Notes: generated from the letters alone by a model not told the origin. A stretch of 64,000 bases of DNA from a virus (IMGVR_UViG_3300046710_000146:49863-113862), one strand, 5' to 3'; positions 883-63,629 are shown, counted from the first letter of the stretch. Numbers and translations: made by a program.

Positions 883-888
883 TAAATA
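883..888 (+). promoter_or_regulatory. late promoter TAAATA
   Basis: Intergenic copy of a motif found before 15 genes; a gp55-like sigma factor is encoded in the window. Confidence 0.65.
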
Positions 889-911
889 GGTTGTCCACAC
901 AAGGCAACCTC

Positions 912-2087
912 ATGACAAAACGTTACGTAAAACTGGAATGCTCGATCTGCGCTCGCACTCGTGATTCGCTGATCAACCCAAAGTACTACACCCCCGATAA
1001 GTGCACGATCACCCTTGGGTGTGAAGGGCGGCTTTCGCCAGTCGGTGAAACATCTGATGGGTCTTCACTGATCGGGGTTCCTCCGATTGGGCTTCAAAAT
1101 TGGTACGCGCGTTCTTCAACGCCAGTTGGCCCTACACCGCTAATGGCGGACGTGCTGTACGACACAAGCACCGGCAGAACAAGACAGCTGATCGTAGCTA
1201 TTCAGGATTCTGCAATTGGCTTTACGCCTAATGACACCTGCACCCTAACCCTGAACCTGATTGCTGAACAGCAACAAGCTCGCGACTATCGCCAGTACAC
1301 GTACCGTAAGACGGGTTCATTCGCGGTTGTGAATGGTGTTGAAGATGCAGTGGCGAAAAAGGTGCTACGGTACACGATCACCGGCGCAAATCCTGACCAG
1401 GTCGAGGTATATGTTGACGGGGTGAAACGCGTACGTGGAACAGGCGCTGCTGAATACCAGCTGTATGATGGGGTCGTTGGTTCGCCGGTGCCACCGAACA
1501 GTGTGCTGTTCAACACGGTGGTCACGGGTGTAGCACCACAAGTAGATGTGATCGTGACCAAGGCGGCCACCCTATCAACACTAAGCCTTCCGCTCGTTCG
1601 CATGATTGCCGATGATTCACGTGTTGGGACTGGTGCATGGGAAGGCGTAGATGGCATCAAAAAGTTGAACGATCGTTGGAGCTTGTTCTACTGTGACTTT
1701 ACTGAAGTTGGAACCACGCCAGTTGATGTGAAGCTTCGACTTGACCCTGCAGTGGCGAATATGGTTGTACAAGGTAATACGACCGCCATTGTGCCACCAG
1801 CGTCATCTGCCATTCTGTTATCACGTACAAAGCTGCATACTGCAGTGGATCGTACGCGTGGTAGTTGGGCGCCACTTTCGATGCTGACCTCGACCGCGAA
1901 CTACCTGGTGATTAAGTTCTATGACGGGGCGCGGCAGCTTCTCGTGACAACCGCTTCGGTGCTGGATGTGTTCCCACCGCTCGAGGTTCTTCGGTACAAC
2001 ACCCCTACTTTACTTCGTACGGGGCTATCAGGAAACAACGACGCTGGTGAAATTGACAGCTCAATCACGATTGGACCTGACGCATGA
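912..2087 (+). CDS. putative virion structural protein with an N-terminal Cys cluster
   Basis: Long ORF behind a late promoter, beta-rich T/V/G composition, CxxC...C...C. Confidence 0.55.
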   Translation: MTKRYVKLECSICARTRDSLINPKYYTPDKCTITLGCEGRLSPVGETSDGSSLIGVPPIGLQNWYARSSTPVGPTPLMADVLYDTSTGRTRQLIVAIQDSAIGFTPNDTCTLTLNLIAEQQQARDYRQYTYRKTGSFAVVNGVEDAVAKKVLRYTITGANPDQVEVYVDGVKRVRGTGAAEYQLYDGVVGSPVPPNSVLFNTVVTGVAPQVDVIVTKAATLSTLSLPLVRMIADDSRVGTGAWEGVDGIKKLNDRWSLFYCDFTEVGTTPVDVKLRLDPAVANMVVQGNTTAIVPPASSAILLSRTKLHTAVDRTRGSWAPLSMLTSTANYLVIKFYDGARQLLVTTASVLDVFPPLEVLRYNTPTLLRTGLSGNNDAGEIDSSITIGPDA

Positions 2088-2943: not shown

Positions 2944-3024
2944 CCCTGACCCATAGGCGGGTTGCACGGGGCTTGGTGTTACGTTACAATTACATCTGTA
3001 TCAACACACCTACAAAGGTTTCCT

Positions 3025-3378
3025 ATGCGCAATCCCCTTGCTGTCGCCGGTGCGGCTGACAAACCAAACGTGAAGTTCAAGAGCATCCAAGACATCATGC
3101 GTGATCCCACCATGAAGGCAAAGCTGAACAACCTGGTCGATGAGGCCGTGCGTTGCAAGCAACGAATCTACACCGAACAACAGGCGATGAAGGATCTTCG
3201 CGACGTGGCCCGGAACGATGTGGCGTTGAACCCAAAGCTGTTCAACTACTACGTGGCCATGGTGTTCAACAACGACTACGCCGCTCGCAAAGAGAACGTT
3301 GATCAACTTGAAACACTGATTGAAACCGTGATGAACCTCGGTGGCATGGTTGACGATGCCCCTGGCTTCGACGACTAA
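3025..3378 (+). CDS. dsbA: T4 DsbA/GapR-like double-stranded DNA-binding protein
   Basis: Helical pattern LxxLVDEA..K.RI......KDLR..A......PKLFN resembles T4 DsbA; TACAAT at 2985-2990 upstream. Confidence 0.6.
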   Translation: MRNPLAVAGAADKPNVKFKSIQDIMRDPTMKAKLNNLVDEAVRCKQRIYTEQQAMKDLRDVARNDVALNPKLFNYYVAMVFNNDYAARKENVDQLETLIETVMNLGGMVDDAPGFDD

Positions 3379-3381
3379 TCG

Positions 3382-3633
3382 ATGACCTGCATTAGATTTG
3401 GTGATGATCGTTCCATGGGCTTTGTCTGTGTGAACGATCAGATCCGGCTTCATGTTGGAAACCGGTATGTGTGGATGAGCTGGCACGATTACACTGGGCC
3501 TTCTTTCTACACAATGGAAAACGGCGAGGAGGTCTATTATGATCCAGTTGACGAGAACGACCCAGTGTGGGAACCGTTCGGTCGCTGGCTTATAAAGCAC
3601 AACGCCGCTAAAGAGGCACGCACCAAAAAATGA
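3382..3633 (+). CDS. hypothetical protein
   Basis: 83 aa ORF in the operon direction. Confidence 0.65.
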   Translation: MTCIRFGDDRSMGFVCVNDQIRLHVGNRYVWMSWHDYTGPSFYTMENGEEVYYDPVDENDPVWEPFGRWLIKHNAAKEARTKK

Positions 3634-3638
3634 CAGTG

Positions 3639-4430
3639 TCATTGGCGGCAGTTGTCAAAATGCCATCGCCTCATGTTCCCTGCTGTTCCGGTTTTTCCAC
3701 AATGTGGGCATGTAATCTTTGGCAAGCTTAGCCCCTGTTCACTGCGCTTCTGCCATGCTGCACGCTGACTCTCTTTATGTTTTTCAGACAGCGGTTTTCC
3801 AGTATGCAGTGCAACGAGCCGATCCCGTTGTTCTTGTGACAACGGGATCCCCTTGCGGCTTTCAGACATCTTCCTGATTGTCTCGGCTGATCGTGGTTTG
3901 CCAGTAAACGCAGCCCTTAGTTTTGCCCGGGTTTCATCTTTAACCGGGCGACCCATCATGCCAGCGGAAATCTTGGCACACGTTTCAGCAGATGGCAGTG
4001 CTTTATTCTTTTGACCTTTACTGAGATTTGCACGCTCTTGCTCTGATCGTGGGCGACCTTTCTGAGCAGCCCCGATTTTGGCACGGTGCTCCGAGGATTT
4101 TGGCCTGCCAGCGACGCAAAAAGCGATACCGCCGGCTGGGTCAATAAAATGGCGATTGAGACATAGTGGATCTAACCGGTGCCCCTTAATCAGTTGCTGT
4201 TCTTCCCAATAGCAGTCTAGTGTTTCTCCAGTCATAATGATTTGCCACTCAAATGCCTCGATCCCAAATGCGGAAATATTGCGCTTCATAATAGTGCTGG
4301 AGGACTGATAGTGATGTCTAAAATCTTGCTCAGGAGTTCGCTTCTTACGGATGTTAGCAGACCTGGACCCATAATAGAACTCGCCAGTTTGCTTGTTACG
4401 AATACAATATACATATGCCTGAAATGTCAT
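3639..4430 (-). mobile_element. free-standing GIY-YIG homing endonuclease with NUMOD3 repeats (Seg-like)
   Basis: AYVY...FYYGS N-terminus, repeated S.E.R.K.S...KG units, C-terminal CPHC; antisense to its neighbours; AGGAG RBS. Confidence 0.85.
4403..4408 (+). promoter_or_regulatory. TACAAT -10 element for the polymerase, lying inside the HEG coding region
   Basis: TACAAT-N6-ATG(4415); no SD sequence. Confidence 0.6.
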
Positions 4431-6133
4431 CAAATACTCCTAAAGATCAGAACTATTTAGCAAGTTCGTACATTAGTTCAACACACGATTGGGACTCCGA
4501 CAAGATTCTTGTTTGGGAGCGCCCAATTGGTGGGGGTGAACGACGCGTCGTAATGCACGATGCCCCACGGTACTTCTACGTGCCGGATGATGAGGGTGAG
4601 CATACCGCAATTGATGGGGTGAAGCTCAAGAAGTTCGTGTTCGATTCGAAAGATGAGTTCACGGCTGAAGCCCGGCGCCATCGCATCAAGTATGAAAGCG
4701 ATATCCAGCCCGAGGCCCGACTGCTGATGGAGGCGTACTACGGGCGCCCAACACCAGTCGTGAACTACGCGTTCCTCGACATCGAGGTTGATTACTCCTC
4801 GAAGATTGGTTGGAGCTCGCCAGAGAATCCGTACGCCCCGATAAACGCGATCACGATCTTCCAGTCATGGACAGGTAAGTACCTGACGTACGCGGTGCCA
4901 CCAAAAACCTGGAAGGGTGATGAGGCTACGCTGCAGCTTGAAGTCCAGCGACTCTGGAAAGAGCACAAGCTGGACTTTGTACCCGATGTCACGATCTGTA
5001 AGACTGAGCGTGATCTGCTGTTGTATATGCTCGGTGATATCGAGGATGCCGACATAATCAGCGGCTGGAACTCTGAGTTCTTCGACAACCCGTACATCAT
5101 CAAGCGACTTGAACGAGTCCTTGGTAAGAAGGGTCCAGGGCACATGTCATTCAAGGGGGCACGACCCCCTGCTGAACGAATCGTGAATCGATTTGGATCG
5201 CCCGCGATCACGTTCACTTTGTACGGTAGAACACACCTTGACTATCTTGATCTCTTCAAGAAGTTCACGTTTGAAGGGCGGGTCTCATACTCACTCGCGA
5301 ACATCGCGGCTGAGGAGCTTGACGTTCCGAAGCTCGACTATCCAGGTACGTTGGAGCAGCTGTACCATAACGACTTCGCACATTTCATCACGTATAACGC
5401 CCGCGACGTTGAGGTGCTTGTGCAGCTGGATATGAAGTTCAAGCTCATGCAGCTTGTGAACCAGATGGCACATGAGAACACCGTGCCGTTCATGGCAATT
5501 CTTGGCACCGTCCGATACGTTGAGACTGGGATGATTAATCGTGCGCACAACGCGCACAACTTGATCGTGTGCGACAAGAACATGTCGGGCGAGTTGAATG
5601 AGAAGGTTGAAGGCGCCGTGGTGATGACACCTCGTGCAGGTCTATGGGAATGGATTGGTTCAATCGATCTTACCTCGCTGTACCCAAGCACCGCCCGCGC
5701 CCTGAACATGTCGATTGAAACCTTCGTTGGGCAGTTCGTTGATGAAGAGCGTGCATGGGAAGGTATCCGTGCCAGAGATGACAATCCATGGGAGGCCGTG
5801 ATCTCCCATGAGAGCATCACGGCTACTGGGGCTCAGTGGTTCGAGTACCTACGAGCCGAGAACTATGCAATCTCTGGGTTCGGCACGATCTTCGATCAGA
5901 ACAAACCTGGAATCGTTGCGGACACCCTGACATATTGGTTCAATGAGCGGCTTCGGCTACAGGCCAGTAAGAAAGCCGCGATTGCGGAGGTTAAGACGCT
6001 CAAGGCAACCTTGGGTATTCCCGCCCCCGCAGGGCTACTTATCAAGGAAATGGCTGATCATGATCCATCATCAAAATTAGACGAAGGACTGTCAATTTAT
6101 AACGACGACGATGGAATGCCAAATCAACTATGA
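4415..6133 (+). CDS. gp43A: family B DNA polymerase, N-terminal subunit (3'-5' exonuclease and motif A)
   Basis: ExoI DIE, ExoII GWNSEFFD, ExoIII YNARD, motif A DLTSLYPS. Confidence 0.93.
   Translation: MPEMSSNTPKDQNYLASSYISSTHDWDSDKILVWERPIGGGERRVVMHDAPRYFYVPDDEGEHTAIDGVKLKKFVFDSKDEFTAEARRHRIKYESDIQPEARLLMEAYYGRPTPVVNYAFLDIEVDYSSKIGWSSPENPYAPINAITIFQSWTGKYLTYAVPPKTWKGDEATLQLEVQRLWKEHKLDFVPDVTICKTERDLLLYMLGDIEDADIISGWNSEFFDNPYIIKRLERVLGKKGPGHMSFKGARPPAERIVNRFGSPAITFTLYGRTHLDYLDLFKKFTFEGRVSYSLANIAAEELDVPKLDYPGTLEQLYHNDFAHFITYNARDVEVLVQLDMKFKLMQLVNQMAHENTVPFMAILGTVRYVETGMINRAHNAHNLIVCDKNMSGELNEKVEGAVVMTPRAGLWEWIGSIDLTSLYPSTARALNMSIETFVGQFVDEERAWEGIRARDDNPWEAVISHESITATGAQWFEYLRAENYAISGFGTIFDQNKPGIVADTLTYWFNERLRLQASKKAAIAEVKTLKATLGIPAPAGLLIKEMADHDPSSKLDEGLSIYNDDDGMPNQL
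4454..4459 (-). promoter_or_regulatory. late promoter TAAATA for the HEG, lying inside polymerase codons 14-15
   Basis: TAAATA ... AGGAG(4441-4437) ... ATG(4430) on the minus strand. Confidence 0.6.
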
Positions 6134-7494
6134 ACCTCGCACAAATTAAGAAGCAGTTGAAATCCGGAGATCTGATTCTGGACGGGGGGAAACTGTACAC
6201 AAAAGAAGAGTGGGAGCAGATCAAAGCAAAGCAAGCTGAAGCAGATCACTACGATTTGCTTCAGCTCACGAAGAAGATTCAGCTGAACTCGGCATATGGT
6301 GCGCTCTTGAATGAAGCCTTCCGTTTCGGTCGTCGCGAAATCGGTGCGTCAATTACTGGCACTGGTCGCCAGATCACGAAGCACATGGGGCAGACGATTG
6401 GGACCCTTGCAACTGGGAACAAATGCACGTTCGAGAAGCGCTATGGTGACTTCAAGAACAAGAGCACACGCGCTGGGTCGTTTGAATCAGGCGAGCTGTA
6501 CGGTGAGTGGCTCCAAGCTGAGAACTTCGAAGCGCTCCGTAATCTGCCGCAAGAGCAGCAATGGACACGGAAGTTCAGCAAGGAAAAGAACGCCGAGGTT
6601 GATGTCGGTTCCGGTGCAATATGGTTCACAGAGTGCCCAGCAATCATCTATGGTGATACTGACTCGTGCTACTTCTTAACGTACGGAACAGACTACGACG
6701 AGGCGGTTGCGCTAGCTGATGAGATTGCAACGCAAACGAACGCGACATTCCCAGCGTTTATGCAAGAGGCATTCAACTGTACAGGCGGTCGAGAGCTGTT
6801 GATCAAAGGCGCTCGTGAAGTCGTAGCTGAGCGTGGACTGTTCATGCACATTAAGAAGAAGTACACGTTGCGTGTTGTCAATCTCGATGGGTATGATCTG
6901 CGGTCAAAGCCGAAGTTGAAGTCCATGGGATCTGAGATCAAGAAAGCTGACACGCCAAAGGTGGTGCAGGACTTCTTGAAGGATCTGATGGACCTGGTAC
7001 TCACCGGTAAACCGTACGCCGCAATGGAGGAGTTCATAAATGCACATCGTGGATCGTTGATCGGCGACGCGAAGGATGTGCTTGAGCTTGCAACCGCGAA
7101 GCAGGTGAACAACTTGGACGCGCTGTACGCTGAGTACAAGCGCACCGAGAAGATCAATAATGGAAAGATGAAGCACTGCCCAGGTCACGTTCGTTCCGCG
7201 ATAAACTTCAACGAGATGCTTGAGCTCTTCGATGCAGGTGGAATGCAACCGCTGAAGGCGGGTGACAAAGCCGCGATTCTGTACTTGAAGGACAACGCAT
7301 ACAGGATCAACTCAATTGGGTTTCCACCTGACATGCAGCACCTCCCTGACTGGTTCGTCGAGAACTTCGCGGTCGATCTACGAAAGACCGAAGAGAAGAT
7401 GATCGATAGCAAGGTTTCAGGGATCTTCAAGGCCCTTGGATATGAGACCCCAACCCTGCAGATGGCGCACCTGAAAAGCTCCTTCACATTCTGA
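6130..7494 (+). CDS. gp43B: family B DNA polymerase, C-terminal subunit (motifs B and C, thumb)
   Basis: KIQLNSAYG, YGDTDS, KKKY motifs. Confidence 0.93.
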   Translation: MNLAQIKKQLKSGDLILDGGKLYTKEEWEQIKAKQAEADHYDLLQLTKKIQLNSAYGALLNEAFRFGRREIGASITGTGRQITKHMGQTIGTLATGNKCTFEKRYGDFKNKSTRAGSFESGELYGEWLQAENFEALRNLPQEQQWTRKFSKEKNAEVDVGSGAIWFTECPAIIYGDTDSCYFLTYGTDYDEAVALADEIATQTNATFPAFMQEAFNCTGGRELLIKGAREVVAERGLFMHIKKKYTLRVVNLDGYDLRSKPKLKSMGSEIKKADTPKVVQDFLKDLMDLVLTGKPYAAMEEFINAHRGSLIGDAKDVLELATAKQVNNLDALYAEYKRTEKINNGKMKHCPGHVRSAINFNEMLELFDAGGMQPLKAGDKAAILYLKDNAYRINSIGFPPDMQHLPDWFVENFAVDLRKTEEKMIDSKVSGIFKALGYETPTLQMAHLKSSFTF

Positions 7495-7528
7495 CCCAAG
7501 AGCCAAATGCCCTTTACTCCTATTTGTT

Positions 7529-7534
7529 TACAAT
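7529..7534 (+). promoter_or_regulatory. TACAAT -10 element, 6 nt before ATG 7541
   Basis: TGTTTACAAT-catcat-ATG; no SD sequence. Confidence 0.65.
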
Positions 7535-7540
7535 CATCAT

Positions 7541-8266
7541 ATGAAACTAACTGAAGCTGATCTGCCTAAATTTCGTGCTGCGCTCCTAGCATGCAAACTT
7601 GCCGGTCTCGACACCGTTGTGATCTCTGAAGGTATGCTTCGGGGTCTTGGCGATAAACGGAACGCCGCAATTGTGAGTGAGCTGAAGCTCTCAATTGATC
7701 CTGTGATCAGCATGGGGATCTCACGGGTGCCTGAGCTTGAGAAACGAATTGCAATGTTCGGTGAGCTCGTTGAGATTGATCTTGATGTGAACGATGCGAA
7801 TAAGGTCAGAAAGCTTACCATTCGTGGTAAAGGCGGTAAGGTTGAATTCCGCTGTACTGACGAGAAGCTGATCACATACCCAAAGGCGAACAACGACGAA
7901 CCAGGGGCAGTGGTGACGTTCACCAGACCCGAGGTAGCACTCCTGGCAAAGGGCGCTAAGACCCTCTCTGTCGATCAGCTCACGTTCCAGATCAAGCGTG
8001 ATGGCGCGGTGCATATTGAATGCGCTGATGCAGCCATGGACCGATTCGAGATTGATCTGGAAACCCCCGCGATGTTCGTTGAGGACTCATATCCAATTGT
8101 GAATCCATTCGATGTGTCTTCGGGTGGTGTGTTCCTCCAGCTGCTGGAACACATGGTCAAGGACTCAGACAGCATTGAACTTGTCGTCATGAAAACGGGG
8201 AACGTTGGCATGAAGATCTTTGGGCACGATGTGCTCGCAATCCCACGCGTACAAATTGGAGATTAA
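7541..8266 (+). CDS. probable sliding clamp (gp45-like)
   Basis: 241 aa, MKLT start, two alpha/beta repeats, adjacent to the polymerase. Confidence 0.6.
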   Translation: MKLTEADLPKFRAALLACKLAGLDTVVISEGMLRGLGDKRNAAIVSELKLSIDPVISMGISRVPELEKRIAMFGELVEIDLDVNDANKVRKLTIRGKGGKVEFRCTDEKLITYPKANNDEPGAVVTFTRPEVALLAKGAKTLSVDQLTFQIKRDGAVHIECADAAMDRFEIDLETPAMFVEDSYPIVNPFDVSSGGVFLQLLEHMVKDSDSIELVVMKTGNVGMKIFGHDVLAIPRVQIGD

Positions 8267-10814: not shown

Positions 10815-11349
10815 TTACGCCCGGCTTGGGCGATCAGTCGAGCACTACGAGAAGGTTGGGTACACTCACGTTGAGGTGCCTTGGACCGTCACCCAAGCGG
10901 TGTCGAATATCACGAAGCCGCCAGGTGCTGGCGAGTACTTGATAAACAGCAAGAATAAAGTGCTTGTTGCCTCGGGTGAGCAAGGATTTCTGTACCTCGC
11001 CCTAAAGGGGTTCTTGCCACCTGGGAAATTCCAAGCGATTACGCCGTGTTTTCGTGATGAGCCATTCGATGTCTCGCACACGAAGTACTTCATGAAGAAC
11101 GAGCTGATCATCACCGATGATCCGTCTATCGAGATGGTCAAGAAGATCATAGGCGATGCGTTGGAGTACTTCCATACTGAGCACCCAACGGGGGTGCTGC
11201 GCGTAGTTGAAACCGCGGTGGGGTGCGACATCGAGCTGAATGGCATTGAGCTCGGTTCATATGGGTTACGAAAGACGAGCTTCCTGACCTGGGTGTACGG
11301 CACTGGGCTGGCTGAACCCCGATTTACAATGGCGAAGAACGCAGCATGA
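10807..11349 (+). CDS. stand-alone class II aminoacyl-tRNA synthetase-like catalytic domain
   Basis: Motif 1 GYTHVEVPW, motif 2 CFRDE...YFMKNEL, motif 3 YGTGLAEPRF; 180 aa, no anticodon-binding domain. Confidence 0.75.
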   Translation: MIDYARLGRSVEHYEKVGYTHVEVPWTVTQAVSNITKPPGAGEYLINSKNKVLVASGEQGFLYLALKGFLPPGKFQAITPCFRDEPFDVSHTKYFMKNELIITDDPSIEMVKKIIGDALEYFHTEHPTGVLRVVETAVGCDIELNGIELGSYGLRKTSFLTWVYGTGLAEPRFTMAKNAA

Positions 11350-15315: not shown

Positions 15316-15378
15316 GTTTATGGAACCTATCATCTGATCCCGGACCTTCTGCAGGGACGCACGTCATGGCCCAATTGT

Positions 15379-15384
15379 TACAAT
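15379..15384 (+). promoter_or_regulatory. TACAAT -10 element, 6 nt before ATG 15391
   Basis: TGTTACAAT-tgagct-ATG. Confidence 0.65.
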
Positions 15385-15859: not shown

Positions 15860-16884
15860 TGCAACAGAAGCTTCTTCGTGACTTAATCGAGTCGAACATT
15901 CACCTGGGTCAAGAATCCAGCACGGGATTTCGAGGGCTGCGATGCGCGGTCTGCAATGATCACTCTGAACGTGCTGGGTTTAAGTTCGACGGTGACATGG
16001 TGATCTACAACTGCTTCAACTGCCATACGAAGTCGTTGTACGAGGAGCGCACGACCGACATGTCGGTCTCGATGAAACGGGTCCTTGAGGCATTCGGAAT
16101 CTCACGAGAGAAGATCAACGAGGTCGTTGGTTCCGCGTTCTTTGTGCAGAGCCAAGAACCAAAGGAGATTACCTCAGCTTCAATGAAGCCACAGGTTCGG
16201 CTGTTCACCCCCGAGGTTCCGCTTCCACCGAAATCATATCCAATTGGCGCCCCGCATAATGAGGACCTTCAGCTTCCGCTCGCCGAGTACATCGTTCACC
16301 GAGGGTTGGATCCAGAAAAACTGAATGCGCACTTCAGTCTTGACACTCGGTTTCTCAATCGCGTGATCCTCCCGTGCATGCGTGATGGGAAGGTCATCTA
16401 TTGGCAGGCGCGTACGCTTGGGAACACCAAACCGCGGTACCTATCGCCAGGCACGAACAAAGATGCGGTGATGTGGGGGTACGATAATCTTCGTATGAAC
16501 TACGATGCGCCGCTGTTTATCACCGAGGGAATCTTCGATGCTGCATCATGTGATGGTGTTGCACTGCTTGGGTCGGAGATCAATGAGTCAAAGCTGCAGA
16601 TTCTAAATCGGTCGCGGCGAAGACGAGCGGTCGTGATCGACCGTGATGACAATGGTGGGCGGCTTGCCCAACTCGCACTGAGCCATGGCTGGGAGATCAC
16701 GTTCCCGCCAACAGGTGCGAGCGATGTAAATGACAGCGTGCAGAAGTTCGGAAAGCTGTTCACGATCTGGACCCTACTTCAGAACATGACGGTCCCAACA
16801 GGACTGAGAACAGCTGAAGGTACCACGTTACAATCACAACTACAGCTTGGTGTGCAGATGGCACTGGCAAAGATGAGGAGATAA
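15859..16884 (+). CDS. gp61: DNA primase (gp61-like)
   Basis: Zn ribbon CxxC...CFNC, TOPRIM EGIFD and DRD motifs. Confidence 0.9.
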   Translation: MQQKLLRDLIESNIHLGQESSTGFRGLRCAVCNDHSERAGFKFDGDMVIYNCFNCHTKSLYEERTTDMSVSMKRVLEAFGISREKINEVVGSAFFVQSQEPKEITSASMKPQVRLFTPEVPLPPKSYPIGAPHNEDLQLPLAEYIVHRGLDPEKLNAHFSLDTRFLNRVILPCMRDGKVIYWQARTLGNTKPRYLSPGTNKDAVMWGYDNLRMNYDAPLFITEGIFDAASCDGVALLGSEINESKLQILNRSRRRRAVVIDRDDNGGRLAQLALSHGWEITFPPTGASDVNDSVQKFGKLFTIWTLLQNMTVPTGLRTAEGTTLQSQLQLGVQMALAKMRR

Positions 16885-29686: not shown

Positions 29687-31312
29687 TTATAATGCTGGAA
29701 GTGATTGGCAGTATGCCAAACAGTTGTTCGCACGAGTCGTCCAGCCTGGGAAGTCGGCAAGTCGTGCAAGCTTCTTGATGAAGTTCAAGCGGGCGGTGTT
29801 CAGCTGAACACACATCGCCTGCTGCTGCGCCTGAGATTGAACACCGCTGATTGCAAGACCAGCATCGTTGAAGATCTTTCTACCATTTCCGCCGCCATGA
29901 TGGAAGTTTATGTCAAACAACATCACGCTGACGAGTGGAGCGTTCGTCAATAAGGTTCCCGTAGATGGGATTGGGGACCCCTTCCAGTAGTTATTGAACC
30001 CAGTCTTCTTGGCGCCCGCGTAGTCGACAGTTCGTACGACAGTTCGTGGATTTGGTTTCTGTGCAATGCCAAACTTTGTTTCTCCACCTGGAAAATTTTC
30101 AATGTTCACGTACCCAACTTTGTTTCGCTGGGCGGAGGTACCAATCAAACCCGCGATCACATCTGGATCTGATGCAGAGGAAGCTGACCAATGCGGTCCA
30201 ACTTCGGCGGTCATTGTGAAGAACCAAGCTAACTCAAATGGATCATTTGTTGGCGGTGCAGGATTCGCTGGATCAGTAGTCTCTGGTGGCAAAGCAGCTG
30301 GATATGCTGGTCCAAATGGTTCACAGCTCTCTTGTCGTGCTTGAACCTCGGCTTCACCTAATGATGCGGTGCTGGTCCGTGTTTCAACATCAGCCCCATC
30401 GCCGTTCGGAAGGGTTGAGCGTGCAACATCTAGCGAACCGCGGATAAGTGGTTCTGGATCAATGAACTTGCCATCAGGCAGCTTGCATTCAAAGTGCAGG
30501 TGATTACCGGTGCTCGCGCCTGTCGATCCTTCCAGCCCGATCTTCTGGCCCGCCATAACCTTCTGGCCCTCTTGCACATACACCTTTGCTAGGTGATTGT
30601 ACGTCGTCGTGCACAGATGTTTACCAGCACCGCTTAGGTGCTTCACCCATACTCGAACGCCATATCCAGTTCCTGGATTTCCACCAGCGAGCATCACGGT
30701 GCCGTCAGCTGCGGCTAGGCAGTCTTTGACCGCCCGATCAGCATACTTCATGTCGATGCCAGTATGCATCTTCATGACCTTCTGAATTGGGTGCATGCGC
30801 GGACCGAACTTAGAGTTCACAATCGACCCGGGTAGTGGGCTGATCAGTTGAATCTCAGTGCCTTCACCACCAGCGGATGGGGCTACGGTATATCCACGAA
30901 CATCGAGGGTTCCACCACTCCAGGCGACGGTGATCTTGATCTTGTACTTTGCGGTCAGATCACTGAACGTGCCACTCAGGTGACCGCTGGTGGTGAGCGT
31001 CAACCCTGGTGGTAGGGTATCAATTGTCCAGGCAAGGGTGCTCTCAGTCTCATGTGTGGAGCCCTTAGTTAGCCTGAACTGCACGTCCACTGATGCTGAT
31101 GTTGGGGTGCGCACAATTGGGATCGAAGCATTCTCGATCTTGTCGTTCACATTCCCCGTGGCATCATCTTGTAACCCCGTTGTGTTTCCACCACGGGCCA
31201 TGTAGCATTCAACGGTCTCTCCAGGGCGCATGTCACTCTCGGGGCCGCTGGCCTCAGAGAAGGCTGCACCGATCGCGGTACTTGGTGGAACTGGTGGGCA
31301 GCAGCCGGCCAT
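29687..31312 (-). CDS. modular peptidoglycan hydrolase: Ig-like + M23 peptidase + GH108-like lysozyme
   Basis: LPPGLTL; HTGID, Y.HL, STGNHLHFE; E...GGETKFGI...YW...LFD...HHG. Confidence 0.8.
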   Translation of the reverse strand: MAGCCPPVPPSTAIGAAFSEASGPESDMRPGETVECYMARGGNTTGLQDDATGNVNDKIENASIPIVRTPTSASVDVQFRLTKGSTHETESTLAWTIDTLPPGLTLTTSGHLSGTFSDLTAKYKIKITVAWSGGTLDVRGYTVAPSAGGEGTEIQLISPLPGSIVNSKFGPRMHPIQKVMKMHTGIDMKYADRAVKDCLAAADGTVMLAGGNPGTGYGVRVWVKHLSGAGKHLCTTTYNHLAKVYVQEGQKVMAGQKIGLEGSTGASTGNHLHFECKLPDGKFIDPEPLIRGSLDVARSTLPNGDGADVETRTSTASLGEAEVQARQESCEPFGPAYPAALPPETTDPANPAPPTNDPFELAWFFTMTAEVGPHWSASSASDPDVIAGLIGTSAQRNKVGYVNIENFPGGETKFGIAQKPNPRTVVRTVDYAGAKKTGFNNYWKGSPIPSTGTLLTNAPLVSVMLFDINFHHGGGNGRKIFNDAGLAISGVQSQAQQQAMCVQLNTARLNFIKKLARLADFPGWTTRANNCLAYCQSLPAL

Positions 31313-63005: not shown

Positions 63006-63479
63006 TTAGTCCTCCGAACCACCGCCGAACGCGGTGTCATCGCTCGTCTTCCCAGATATGCCGTGCTTTGTTTGATAGTTGAAGGAAGGATTTGCCCCAG
63101 CCGAAATCAACAACTCATCGCGAATGTCACGTTCTTTGCGTTCACCATCGAGGTAAGACAGGAATGATCGATAGCAAGCCGTTGTGTAGTACGAGAATGG
63201 GTTCGGGTTCTCACTCTTTTCGGGGTTGAACTTATGCCAGTTCGCCACGAGGTTCACAACCGCTGAGCAGACCATATCTTCTCGGAACGAGTACCCGGCG
63301 AACCATGGGTGGTATGAATACTTTTCGGCAACCATCCATAGGTACTTTGCCATTTTATCAGTAAGCTTTCCATGTGCCTTTGACACATGGAACTCCTCTA
63401 GGAGTTGAGCATTCGTGACATAGTGCCCCTTGGTGCTTGTTGCTCGTTCTTTCTTGATTGGTTTCAGCTTTGTCGCCAT
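63006..63479 (-). CDS. gp55: late transcription sigma factor
   Basis: HYV.N..L, F.GYS.REDM, FNPEKS.NPF.Y.T motifs; T4-like 55-47-46 gene order. Confidence 0.92.
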   Translation of the reverse strand: MATKLKPIKKERATSTKGHYVTNAQLLEEFHVSKAHGKLTDKMAKYLWMVAEKYSYHPWFAGYSFREDMVCSAVVNLVANWHKFNPEKSENPNPFSYYTTACYRSFLSYLDGERKERDIRDELLISAGANPSFNYQTKHGISGKTSDDTAFGGGSED

Positions 63480-63514
63480 TAGGACCTCTCGGTGGTTGTA
63501 GGCGGCATGGTGGT

Positions 63515-63520
63515 ATTGTA
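63515..63520 (-). promoter_or_regulatory. TACAAT -10 element upstream of gp55
   Basis: GGTTACAAT; a second GTGATACAAT lies about 60 nt further upstream. Confidence 0.6.
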
Positions 63521-63629
63521 ACCTTATTCTACCCCCGCGCACAGTTAAGCCCAGGTCGACTGGATCTGTCCCCGCATTGTATCACGTCCTCGTTCACGGT
63601 TGCCCCTCGATCCCTTATTGTTACAGTTC

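Follow-up and report, generated by a model that had tools for sequence, protein, structure and literature searches.

How does an essential replication gene go on being expressed once a selfish element has settled, in reverse, across its 5' end, and what does the element gain from that position? The question is raised by a locus in a stretch of 64,000 nucleotides (nt), here called the window, which is the right-hand 64 kb of a 113,862-bp IMG/VR virus record (IMGVR_UViG_3300046710_000146) estimated to be 32% complete. The record belongs to an uncultivated giant (jumbo) phage related to T4. Within it, a free-standing homing endonuclease gene (HEG) of the GIY-YIG type meets, head-to-head, the gene for 43A, the N-terminal half of a split family-B DNA polymerase. 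An earlier note on this DNA had proposed that each of the two genes carries the promoter of the other, and that the endonuclease may have entrenched itself in this way. Genome-wide motif statistics and comparison with relatives support the reciprocal embedding of the predicted promoters. The account that we think probable is that a reversed HEG cassette was inserted at the junction between a dsbA-like gene and the polymerase gene, and that the polymerase is now expressed from within the cassette.

The anatomy of the junction is compact, and every coordinate previously assigned to it holds (Table 1). The two coding regions overlap head-to-head by 16 nt (4415-4430), or by 7 nt if the polymerase starts instead at 4424, where a second in-frame ATG stands; no further in-frame start codon follows before the conserved YISS of the polymerase. 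On the plus strand, TACAAT is followed after six bases by the ATG at 4415. As had been claimed, this segment is the antisense of HEG codons A5-Y6-V7-Y8-C9-I10, of which YVY aligns with the GIY of I-TevI. On the minus strand, CTAAATA is followed after 12 nt by AGGAG and, another 6 nt on, by the HEG ATG at 4430. Read in the polymerase frame, TATTTA is Y14-L15 and CTCCT, the antisense of AGGAG, is T8-P9. The reciprocal embedding extends further than had been described, in that a second element of the predicted polymerase promoter, GGACCCA, lies opposite the YIG codons of the HEG. Its GACCC starts 37 nt before TACAAT, at about -49 from the predicted start of polymerase transcription.

Table 1. Features of the dsbA-polymerase junction and of related sites in the window (positions counted from the first nucleotide of the window).
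Feature	Position	Strand	Basis or relation
GACCCA-N31-TACAAT promoter before dsbA (predicted)	2948..2990	+	same box in relatives' dsbA promoters
dsbA-like gene (T4 DsbA family)	2962..3378	+	Pfam Phage_DsbA, 25.1 bits
83-aa open reading frame, function unassigned, in the dsbA-HEG interval	3382..3633	+	PHROG 7990; weakly similar to the open reading frame at the same place in L004
Short AT-rich hairpin then U6, overlapping the HEG stop	3623..3641	-	fold
Free-standing GIY-YIG/NUMOD3 homing endonuclease gene, 263 aa	3639..4430	-	Pfam, PHROG, I-TevI alignment
GGACCCA, predicted upstream promoter box	4365..4371	+	antisense of HEG codons Y20-G21-S22 (YIG motif)
TACAAT, predicted -10 hexamer of the polymerase promoter	4403..4408	+	antisense of HEG codons Y8-C9-I10 (GIY motif)
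DNA polymerase 43A, N-terminal half of split family-B polymerase	4415..6133	+	Pfam DNA_pol_B_exo1 (PF03104) and DNA_pol_B (PF00136)
Predicted overlap of the primary transcripts, about 34 nt	4415..4448	.	from promoter geometry
Polymerase N-terminal extension, 18 codons, 14 beyond HEG-less relatives	4415..4468	+	antisense of HEG start, 5' untranslated region and promoter
AGGAG, HEG Shine-Dalgarno, 6 nt before ATG 4430	4437..4441	-	in polymerase codons T8-P9
CTAAATA, predicted gp55-type HEG late promoter	4454..4460	-	in polymerase codons Y14-L15-A16
DNA polymerase 43B, C-terminal half, motifs B and C	6130..7494	+	Pfam DNA_pol_B (PF00136), PHROG 262
Clamp-gene TACAAT-N6-ATG, reference member of the leaderless class	7529..7543	+	motif conserved in relatives
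Sliding-clamp gene	7541-8266	+	PHROG
gp55-like late sigma factor gene	63006..63479	-	E 2.1e-7 to T4 gp55

The state of the junction before the HEG arrived can be read from 26 related polymerase loci in viral contigs, in 24 of which the gene order could be established. In all 24 relatives with upstream sequence, the polymerase gene is preceded by a co-oriented dsbA-like gene, which often overlaps the polymerase start (ATGA), and at 18 of the 26 loci the polymerase ATG stands 2-8 codons before the conserved Tyr of YIS. The HEG is sporadic: the locus L004 and 20 other relatives have none in the dsbA-polymerase interval. In L004 the polymerase starts MNTSYISS and is coupled to the upstream open reading frame (ORF). 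A 43A from another assembly (P0123; Logan contigs, compared at the protein level) is 93% identical to that of the window and starts MTTNYISAS, and polymerases with 93-97% identity (P0123/P0151) exist without the N-terminal extension. The window polymerase, by comparison, starts MPEMSSNTPKDQNYLASS-YISS. In the HEG-less relatives, a comparison for which the earlier note had called, the polymerase starts 14 codons later than in the window and is coupled to the upstream dsbA operon.

In the alignment with L003 and L004, the ancestral polymerase ATG falls at 4457-4459, within the CTAAATA box, where the window now has TTA. Because HEG-less relatives start at this position, the cassette appears to have replaced the polymerase start, and is predicted now to supply promoter, ATG and first 14 codons. 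One claim must be amended as a result. The HEG signals do lie within polymerase codons, but these codons are not ancestral to the polymerase; they form an extension of 14-18 codons that comes from the antisense of the HEG cassette. The idea that NYLASS (codons 13-18) is a degenerate duplicate of NYISAS at the polymerase's own start, and that the late promoter would thus have come from polymerase sequence, was dropped, the match being short and the polymerase extension of a second type of locus (L017, below) showing nothing similar.

The predicted polymerase promoter belongs to a class that recurs across the phage. TACAATN6ATG occurs six times in the window against 0.50 expected, a count reached by 0 of 100 shuffles; 9 of the 44 genomic copies of TACAAT have an ATG at exactly 6-nt spacing, with 0-2 at any other spacing. 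When hexamers in the 60 nt preceding each of 141 crude gene calls were ranked by fold enrichment, those with at least 5 upstream copies being counted, TACAAT came sixth (12 of 44 copies, 8-fold enriched). The upstream box is likewise more frequent than expected: at 11 of the 44 sites a G[AT]CC[CT] starts 36-39 nt before TACAAT, while 200 Markov simulations gave a mean of 0.53 such sites (maximum 2) and control offsets gave 0-1. The polymerase box sits at the modal 37-nt distance, and the dsbA, clamp and gp55-like promoters carry the box as well. The composite class precedes replication, recombination and regulatory genes (pol, clamp, a gp46/SbcC-like nuclease, dsbA and gp55) and, by analogy with MotA and the middle promoters of T4, suggests that a phage activator binds near -47. 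In relatives, GACCCA or GTCCCA is retained some 31 nt before TACAAT in the orthologous dsbA promoters, and in the close relatives L003, L004, L011 and L017 no composite promoter other than that of dsbA lies in the 1.5 kb before the polymerase gene. The GACCCA-N31-TACAAT promoter of dsbA would on this evidence mark an ancestral dsbA-pol operon. In HEG-less relatives the polymerase shares the dsbA promoter, whereas in the window its predicted composite promoter (4365-4408) lies within HEG codons 8-22.

No Shine-Dalgarno sequence precedes either 4415 or 4424 (no GGAG, GAGG or AGGA in -18 to -4), and none is found in the TACAATN6ATG genes (0 of 6). Because the polymerase ATG lacks one, its mRNA is probably leaderless, with the A of ATG 4415 as its first base; no structure is predicted for its first 35 nt. 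At the clamp gene, TACAAT/TATAAT/TAAAAT-N6-ATG is kept in about 10 related contigs despite a variable spacer, while in more distant relatives the clamp gene uses a Shine-Dalgarno instead. The Ralstonia jumbo phage RsoM2USA, a cultured relative, has a polymerase gene with a Shine-Dalgarno and a TTG start after dsbA, and a clamp gene without TACAAT; because the leaderless grammar is not used there, RsoM2USA is not a ready experimental proxy. PA5oct has been reported with conventional TATAATA and TTGAC promoters (PMC7318152), and full-text literature searches surfaced no paper describing a leaderless grammar for this phage clade.

On the other strand, a late promoter had been proposed for the HEG. 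CTAAATA is indeed found at the site, but it differs from the late box canonical for T4: the exact octamer TATAAATA does not occur in the window, and the local motif is (C/G)TAAATA(G/A). The window has 11 copies of CTAAATA where 2.1 are expected, a number that none of 100 shuffles reached; in the relative G002 there are 23, against 0 for the reversed control. TAAATA heads the upstream hexamer screen, with 22 of its 34 genomic copies within 60 nt of called starts (19-fold), and four of the five hexamers ranked between it and TACAAT overlap the TAAATA motif. After 30 of the 34 copies an ORF of at least 50 aa starts within 80 nt. The ORFs that can be named encode endonuclease VII, a PAAR protein, a head-decoration-like protein and a putative virion protein, and TAAATA also precedes an unannotated ORF of 2823 aa. 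Of all 7-mers that include TAAATA, the two with the highest enrichment, TAAATAG and CTAAATA, are both present at the HEG site, GCTAAATAG. A gp55-like gene, a clamp gene and a DsbA gene are all encoded in the record. Because of these genes and the enrichment upstream of ORF starts, we predict that (C/G)TAAATA is the local equivalent of a gp55-dependent late promoter, with the gp55-like factor as its likely reader. A gp33 was not identified, the record searched being only 32% complete.

The element itself is recognizable as a free-standing HEG. Its N-terminus is a SegE-like nuclease domain (Pfam PF19835 SegE_GIY-YIG, 29.2 bits with a cut-off of 25), it has NUMOD3 repeats (35.8 bits, cut-off 20.4) and a C-terminal zinc-ribbon-like tail, CxxC...HxxxC, of which CPHC...HFDNC is kept in homologues, and it matches PHROG 314 'homing endonuclease' with E 5.8e-36. 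Its profile aligns to the catalytic domain of I-TevI (1MK0) at E 0.013 only; in this alignment of AYVYCI...FYYGS, YVY stands for GIY and YYG for YVG, and the downstream R and E are also aligned. Homologues with 50-52% identity conserve Y(V/T)YCIR and Y(Y/F)GSRS, relative to which the window HEG carries an extra NUMOD3-type insertion. An intron-encoded HEG was rejected, because Rfam finds no group I intron or other RNA family in 3000-7600 and because the orientation is reversed; a hairpin sequestering the ribosome-binding site, of the I-TevI kind, is not supported (fold z = 0.63). At the other end of the gene, the hairpin that overlaps the HEG stop may, from its predicted fold, act as a weak terminator of the HEG transcript, but was not called by a consensus terminator scan.

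The following course of events would account for the locus. A reversed GIY-YIG cassette, made up of late promoter, Shine-Dalgarno and ORF, would have inserted at the junction between dsbA operon and polymerase, destroying the original start codon of the latter. The polymerase would now be driven by a middle-type promoter (GGACCCA, 31 nt, TACAAT) on the antisense of the YIG and GIY codons, with transcription starting, in a sigma-70-type geometry, on the A of the new ATG. Its leaderless mRNA would include 14 extra N-terminal codons, complementary to the region where the HEG has its start codon, Shine-Dalgarno and promoter. The HEG, for its part, would be transcribed leftwards from CTAAATA, late in infection, by RNA polymerase with the gp55-like sigma factor, and translated from AGGAG-N6-ATG. 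T4 late geometry, which the genes with TAAATA-N4/5-ATG support, would place the start of its transcript near 4448. The 5' ends of the two mRNAs would then be complementary over some 34 nt that cover the polymerase AUG as well as the HEG Shine-Dalgarno and AUG.

Because the promoters face each other and the 5' ends would be complementary, middle expression of the polymerase and late expression of the HEG are likely to be mutually exclusive in time. Polymerase transcription and read-through at middle times would run antisense to the HEG, which could be silenced early via convergent transcription or antisense pairing; late gp55-driven transcription would express the HEG and could interfere with the polymerase promoter. 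Transcripts that read through from dsbA would probably be poorly translated for the polymerase, because neither of its ATG codons has a Shine-Dalgarno. Given such read-through mRNA, the embedded promoter would be important for translation as well as for transcription.

Might the layout then be kept mainly for the benefit of the phage, as a timing switch in which polymerase synthesis is shut down late through CTAAATA transcription and the complementary 5' ends, polymerase transcription blocks the HEG early, and selfish retention is secondary? The predicted convergent starts only about 34 nt apart, and the position of the complementary segment over the start signals of both genes, are what such a switch would look like, and T4 likewise restricts its HEGs to middle or late times through HEG-specific promoters of these classes (PMC2988022). 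A second face-to-face pair, in the form of an inverted repeat, also exists at L002 2207-2254, in the same genome outside the window. Here another reversed HEG (L002 1300-2226; HNH-type with NUMOD3; PHROG 655, E 7.5e-38) is head-to-head with a virion-protein gene, whose CTAAATA (2207-2213) lies inside HEG codons 5-7, while the HEG's own CATAAATA (2254-2247) lies in the 72-nt leader of its neighbor; the two boxes are arms of an imperfect inverted repeat. The region, L002 1300-2300, corresponds to G000:C1:35024-36024. Yet the overlap at the polymerase is short and is built on predicted promoters, and HEG-less relatives, including the one with a 93% identical polymerase, do without any such switch. 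We regard the switch as an unlikely reason for the layout, and return to the insertion of a selfish cassette from within which the polymerase is expressed.

Other insertions at the same place bear on this reading. Three different GIY-YIG insertions are found at the dsbA/pol junction, one co-oriented and two reversed, and the junction is a HEG hot spot in the clade. The co-oriented case is an unrelated GIY-YIG gene in L003 (3295-4005, plus strand) that overlaps the polymerase start; the other reversed gene, which faces the polymerase gene as that of the window does, is found in L017/L176 (L017 2684-3454), L012 and L175. The L017-type HEG and that of the window are only about 25% identical in the nuclease domain but about 70% identical in the NUMOD3 and zinc-ribbon half. 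A shared target site fits with the high identity of this DNA-binding half, and the two reversed HEGs suggest domain shuffling around a common target site. In L017, L175 and L176, GCTAAATA stands 23 nt before the reversed-HEG ATG, the same distance as that of CTAAATA in the window; it is kept between two diverged copies of the L017 type while the flanks change, and it sits inside a 16-codon extension of the polymerase. In this type the polymerase has a GGAG/GAGG Shine-Dalgarno, read from the strand opposite the bases that immediately precede the HEG ATG. A scan of viral contigs with the HEG alone returned only distant HEGs; a scan of viral contigs with the HEG alignment found only the L017-type arrangement adjoining a polymerase; and a metagenome scan with the alignment returned 80 distant HEGs, none adjoining a polymerase gene.

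Several points weigh against expression of the polymerase from within the cassette. The promoters are predictions from sequence alone, in an uncultivated IMG/VR contig. The polymerase promoter reads ATACAAT, without the T that precedes TACAAT at 7 of the 11 composite sites, and its -35 element matches at only four of six positions. The homology of the late sigma factor to gp55 is weak, neither Pfam nor PHROG having confirmed the identity of the ORF. In the L017 type no embedded TACAAT promoter is seen, a Shine-Dalgarno being used instead. No plus-strand terminator is predicted between dsbA and the polymerase gene, and read-through could also carry the polymerase. Finally, the chance of finding TACAAT and GACCC antisense to the HEG is about 12%, given its protein sequence and its own codon usage (TAT 6/6, GGG 7/20), or about 2% with genome codon usage; because of these values, selection on synonymous sites of the HEG is not demonstrated.

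Read together, some of these points could mean that the promoter motifs are mere by-products of the GIY and YIG codons, that the polymerase is made by dsbA read-through and translation from an internal AUG, and that only the HEG late promoter is functional. The chance estimate on the HEG's own codons, the lack of a predicted terminator and the L017-type polymerase, which appears to rely on read-through and its Shine-Dalgarno, all lean that way, as does the conservation of both catalytic motifs (Y(V/T)YCIR and Y(Y/F)GSRS) in homologues. This would, however, require three coincidences at the same place: the spacing from TACAAT to the only usable ATG would have to be exactly 6 nt, GACCC would have to fall at the modal distance of 37 nt, and the frame leading into the polymerase would have to be open. 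An internal AUG would also be poorly translated, neither ATG having a Shine-Dalgarno, and the same grammar is conserved at the clamp gene of relatives. A by-product origin of the motifs is to our minds distinctly unlikely, and we continue with a polymerase promoter embedded in the HEG.

What would such a promoter do for the element? The earlier note had argued for entrenchment, deletion or degradation of the HEG N-terminus being expected to remove the promoter of an essential gene. The logic holds, in that the ancestral ATG is now TTA and the predicted promoter and ATG lie inside the HEG: the first ~70 bp of the HEG would be undeletable, because the predicted promoter and start codon of the essential polymerase would be lost with them. 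What does not hold is any protection of activity, for beyond these ~70 bp the nuclease can still decay by mutation. Within them, the promoter would fix Cys9, Gly21 and Ser22 of the HEG, and in part Tyr8 and Tyr20. A bolder version is that the GIY and YIG codon blocks, 13 codons apart, double on the antisense strand as promoter elements 37 nt apart for a leaderless polymerase, such that purifying selection holds the nuclease residues, and the HEG signals are in turn held as polymerase codons. This we put forward tentatively, and with more doubt than belief. If true, such dual-strand entrenchment would slow the decay of the element and not only its deletion, and would offer a possible general route for reversed HEG cassettes settling at the 5' ends of leaderless genes.

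The short reach of this protection also fits a different view of the present state of the element, in which the HEG is no longer active, its 5' region has been domesticated as promoter and leader of the polymerase, and the rest of the ORF is merely young or neutral. The exact arrangement was found once in all collections searched, and the extra NUMOD3-type insertion relative to homologues could be taken in the same sense. The ORF of 263 aa is nevertheless intact: the aligned GIY/YIG Tyr, Gly, Arg and Glu are all in place, its Shine-Dalgarno is good, and its late-promoter words (CTAAATA and TAAATAG) are the best of the local ones. Furthermore, because a 93-97% identical polymerase lacks the extension, the insertion would be recent or polymorphic, as expected of an active HEG. 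Loss of activity followed by domestication thus strikes us as very unlikely, and the locus is better described as that of a reversed, apparently intact HEG cassette from which the polymerase is probably expressed.

The surroundings are T4-like, with the DsbA-like gene, the split polymerase 43A/43B and the sliding clamp. Megablast against GenBank phages gave no DNA match for 3300-6200, and the window has no near relative there in its DNA; its family-B polymerase shares 49% identity with that of RsoM2USA and 33-38% with those of XacN1, Xoo-sp13 and PA5oct. 43A (PHROG 262, E 2.5e-100; 49% identity to the RsoM2USA polymerase) has DIEVD, NSEFFD and YNARD of the exonuclease domain and motif A, DLTSLYPS; 43B has NSAYG, YGDTDS being read in the aligned L004 polymerase. 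The halves, of 572 and 454 aa, overlap by ATGA at 6130-6133. The split falls between motifs A and B; against the unsplit polymerase of L004 it comes after WFNERLRLQAxKK, and both halves have a tail of their own. First halves of similar size (527-550 aa) occur in many relatives (P0123, P0127, P0129, P0134 and others), the polymerases of L003 and L004 are unsplit, and some relatives have an intein domain (PF14890). On the other side of the HEG, the 83-aa ORF ends 5 nt from the HEG stop, the two genes being convergent.

Both promoter grammars have further members and variants in the record. In the 114-kb record there are 11 copies of G(A/T)CC(C/T)A-N~31-TACAAT, a class that has no conserved -35, where 0.5 would be expected. 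Its window sites are 2948-2990, 4365-4408, 7492-7534, 11288-11330, 15342-15384 and 16792-16834 on the plus strand, and 57568-57526 and 63520-63557 on the minus strand. At the gp55-like gene (63477-63520, minus strand), GACC-N31-TACAAT-N6-ATG opens a nine-codon ORF, MPPTTTERS. Its stop and the gp55 start overlap as UAAUG, just before which lies GAGAGG; it may act as a leaderless upstream ORF to which translation of the late sigma gene is coupled. At G000:C1 ~7400-7460 and 31250-31300 (window -42415 and -18572) lie two near-identical promoter regions with paired GTTAC boxes, TAGC(C)GTTACA...GTTACR-N11-TGATACAAT-N6-ATG, which have an extended -10, are leaderless too, and may be an early class read by host sigma70. 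In the late class, TAAATA-N4/5-ATG precedes ORFs of 99-773 aa, including the PAAR and endonuclease VII genes (window 18801, 29117(-) and 58007(-); genome -4328, -42454(-) and -44684(-)), which are candidates for late leaderless genes. A GC-rich hairpin directly follows TAAATA at window 883-912, L004 1214-1245 and L017 44-75, and also at window 12633 and L004 9424. Its stem varies between orthologues and yet stays paired (GGTTGCC.../GGGCTGT...), and a hairpin at the extreme 5' end of some late mRNAs looks conserved.

HEGs are expected to cycle through invasion, decay and loss, and their persistence in T4 is partly explained by embedded host promoters. Promoters of essential T4 genes lie within free-standing HEGs, those of gene 32 in segG, with similar cases in segA, segE, mobB and mobC (Edgell, Gibb and Belfort, 2010, PMC2988022), and an embedded promoter of the neighbor favors retention of the HEG (PMC2988022). 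As in segG and gene 32, the insertion described here appears to have displaced the expression signals of the host gene, and the promoter of the neighbor lies in the HEG coding region. In the segG type, however, the HEG is co-oriented and the promoter lies in its 3' part, whereas here the HEG is reversed and the predicted promoter is antisense to its first 22 codons, on both catalytic motifs. Also unlike segG, the cassette supplies a start codon and 14 codons, the coding regions overlap head-to-head, and the embedding is reciprocal. The only antisense-oriented HEG of T4 is segD, which is flanked by genes 23 and 24, has no identifiable promoter and is thought to be barely transcribed (PMC2988022). 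It resembles the HEG described here in being an antisense GIY-YIG endonuclease of the Seg type among essential genes; the latter differs from it in that its upstream sequence strongly matches the local late motif, its Shine-Dalgarno is good, and it abuts the start of its neighbor rather than lying between two complete genes. A predicted gp55-type late promoter directly 5' of the HEG ORF within an earlier transcription unit is a further likeness to known HEGs, although the box here is CTAAATA and not TATAAATA, and unlike in the I-TevI kind no hairpin sequestering the ribosome-binding site is predicted.

The polymerase gene of T4-family phages is itself a known HEG target, and HEG-associated splits of gene 43 are found in Aeromonas phages, with seg43(25) in phage 25 and 43A/43B in Aeh1 (PMC2988022). 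The window shares with these the two cistrons; it differs in that the split (6130-6133) is without a HEG, and the HEG lies at the 5' end of 43A.

Convergent promoters and leaderless starts have their own precedents. The face-to-face promoters pR and pL of coliphage 186 show transcriptional interference, and are similarly convergent, tens of bp apart, with transcripts that overlap at their 5' ends; here the contest would instead be between a selfish element and an essential replication gene, with different sigma factors predicted to act at different times. Leaderless mRNAs with a -10 hexamer 6 or 7 nt before the ATG are made from lambda cI at PRM and from many genes of Actinobacteria and Deinococcus. 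Such mRNAs have been described in mycobacteria (PMC4633059). The polymerase gene shares with these systems the -10 hexamer 6 nt before the ATG and the lack of a Shine-Dalgarno; unlike them, it would belong to a phage-wide grammar of replication genes with a GACCCA box at about -47, not a -35 element.

The two promoter grammars, the leaderless TACAAT-N6-ATG with GACCCA and the late (C/G)TAAATA, should improve the annotation of start codons and operons in contigs of this clade. The locus also offers a test object of about 100 bp for the mutual constraint of signals on opposite strands, and for promoter interference as a means of timing a selfish gene. The principle of entrenchment is already published for the seg and mob genes of T4, and what is seen here is a tighter, reversed version of it. 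New, as far as prediction from the sequence goes, are the reversed orientation with reciprocal embedding, the replacement of a start codon, a leaderless essential gene, and promoter elements placed on the GIY and YIG codons; taken together, they would make this locus a more extreme, reversed form of the embedded-promoter solution of T4.

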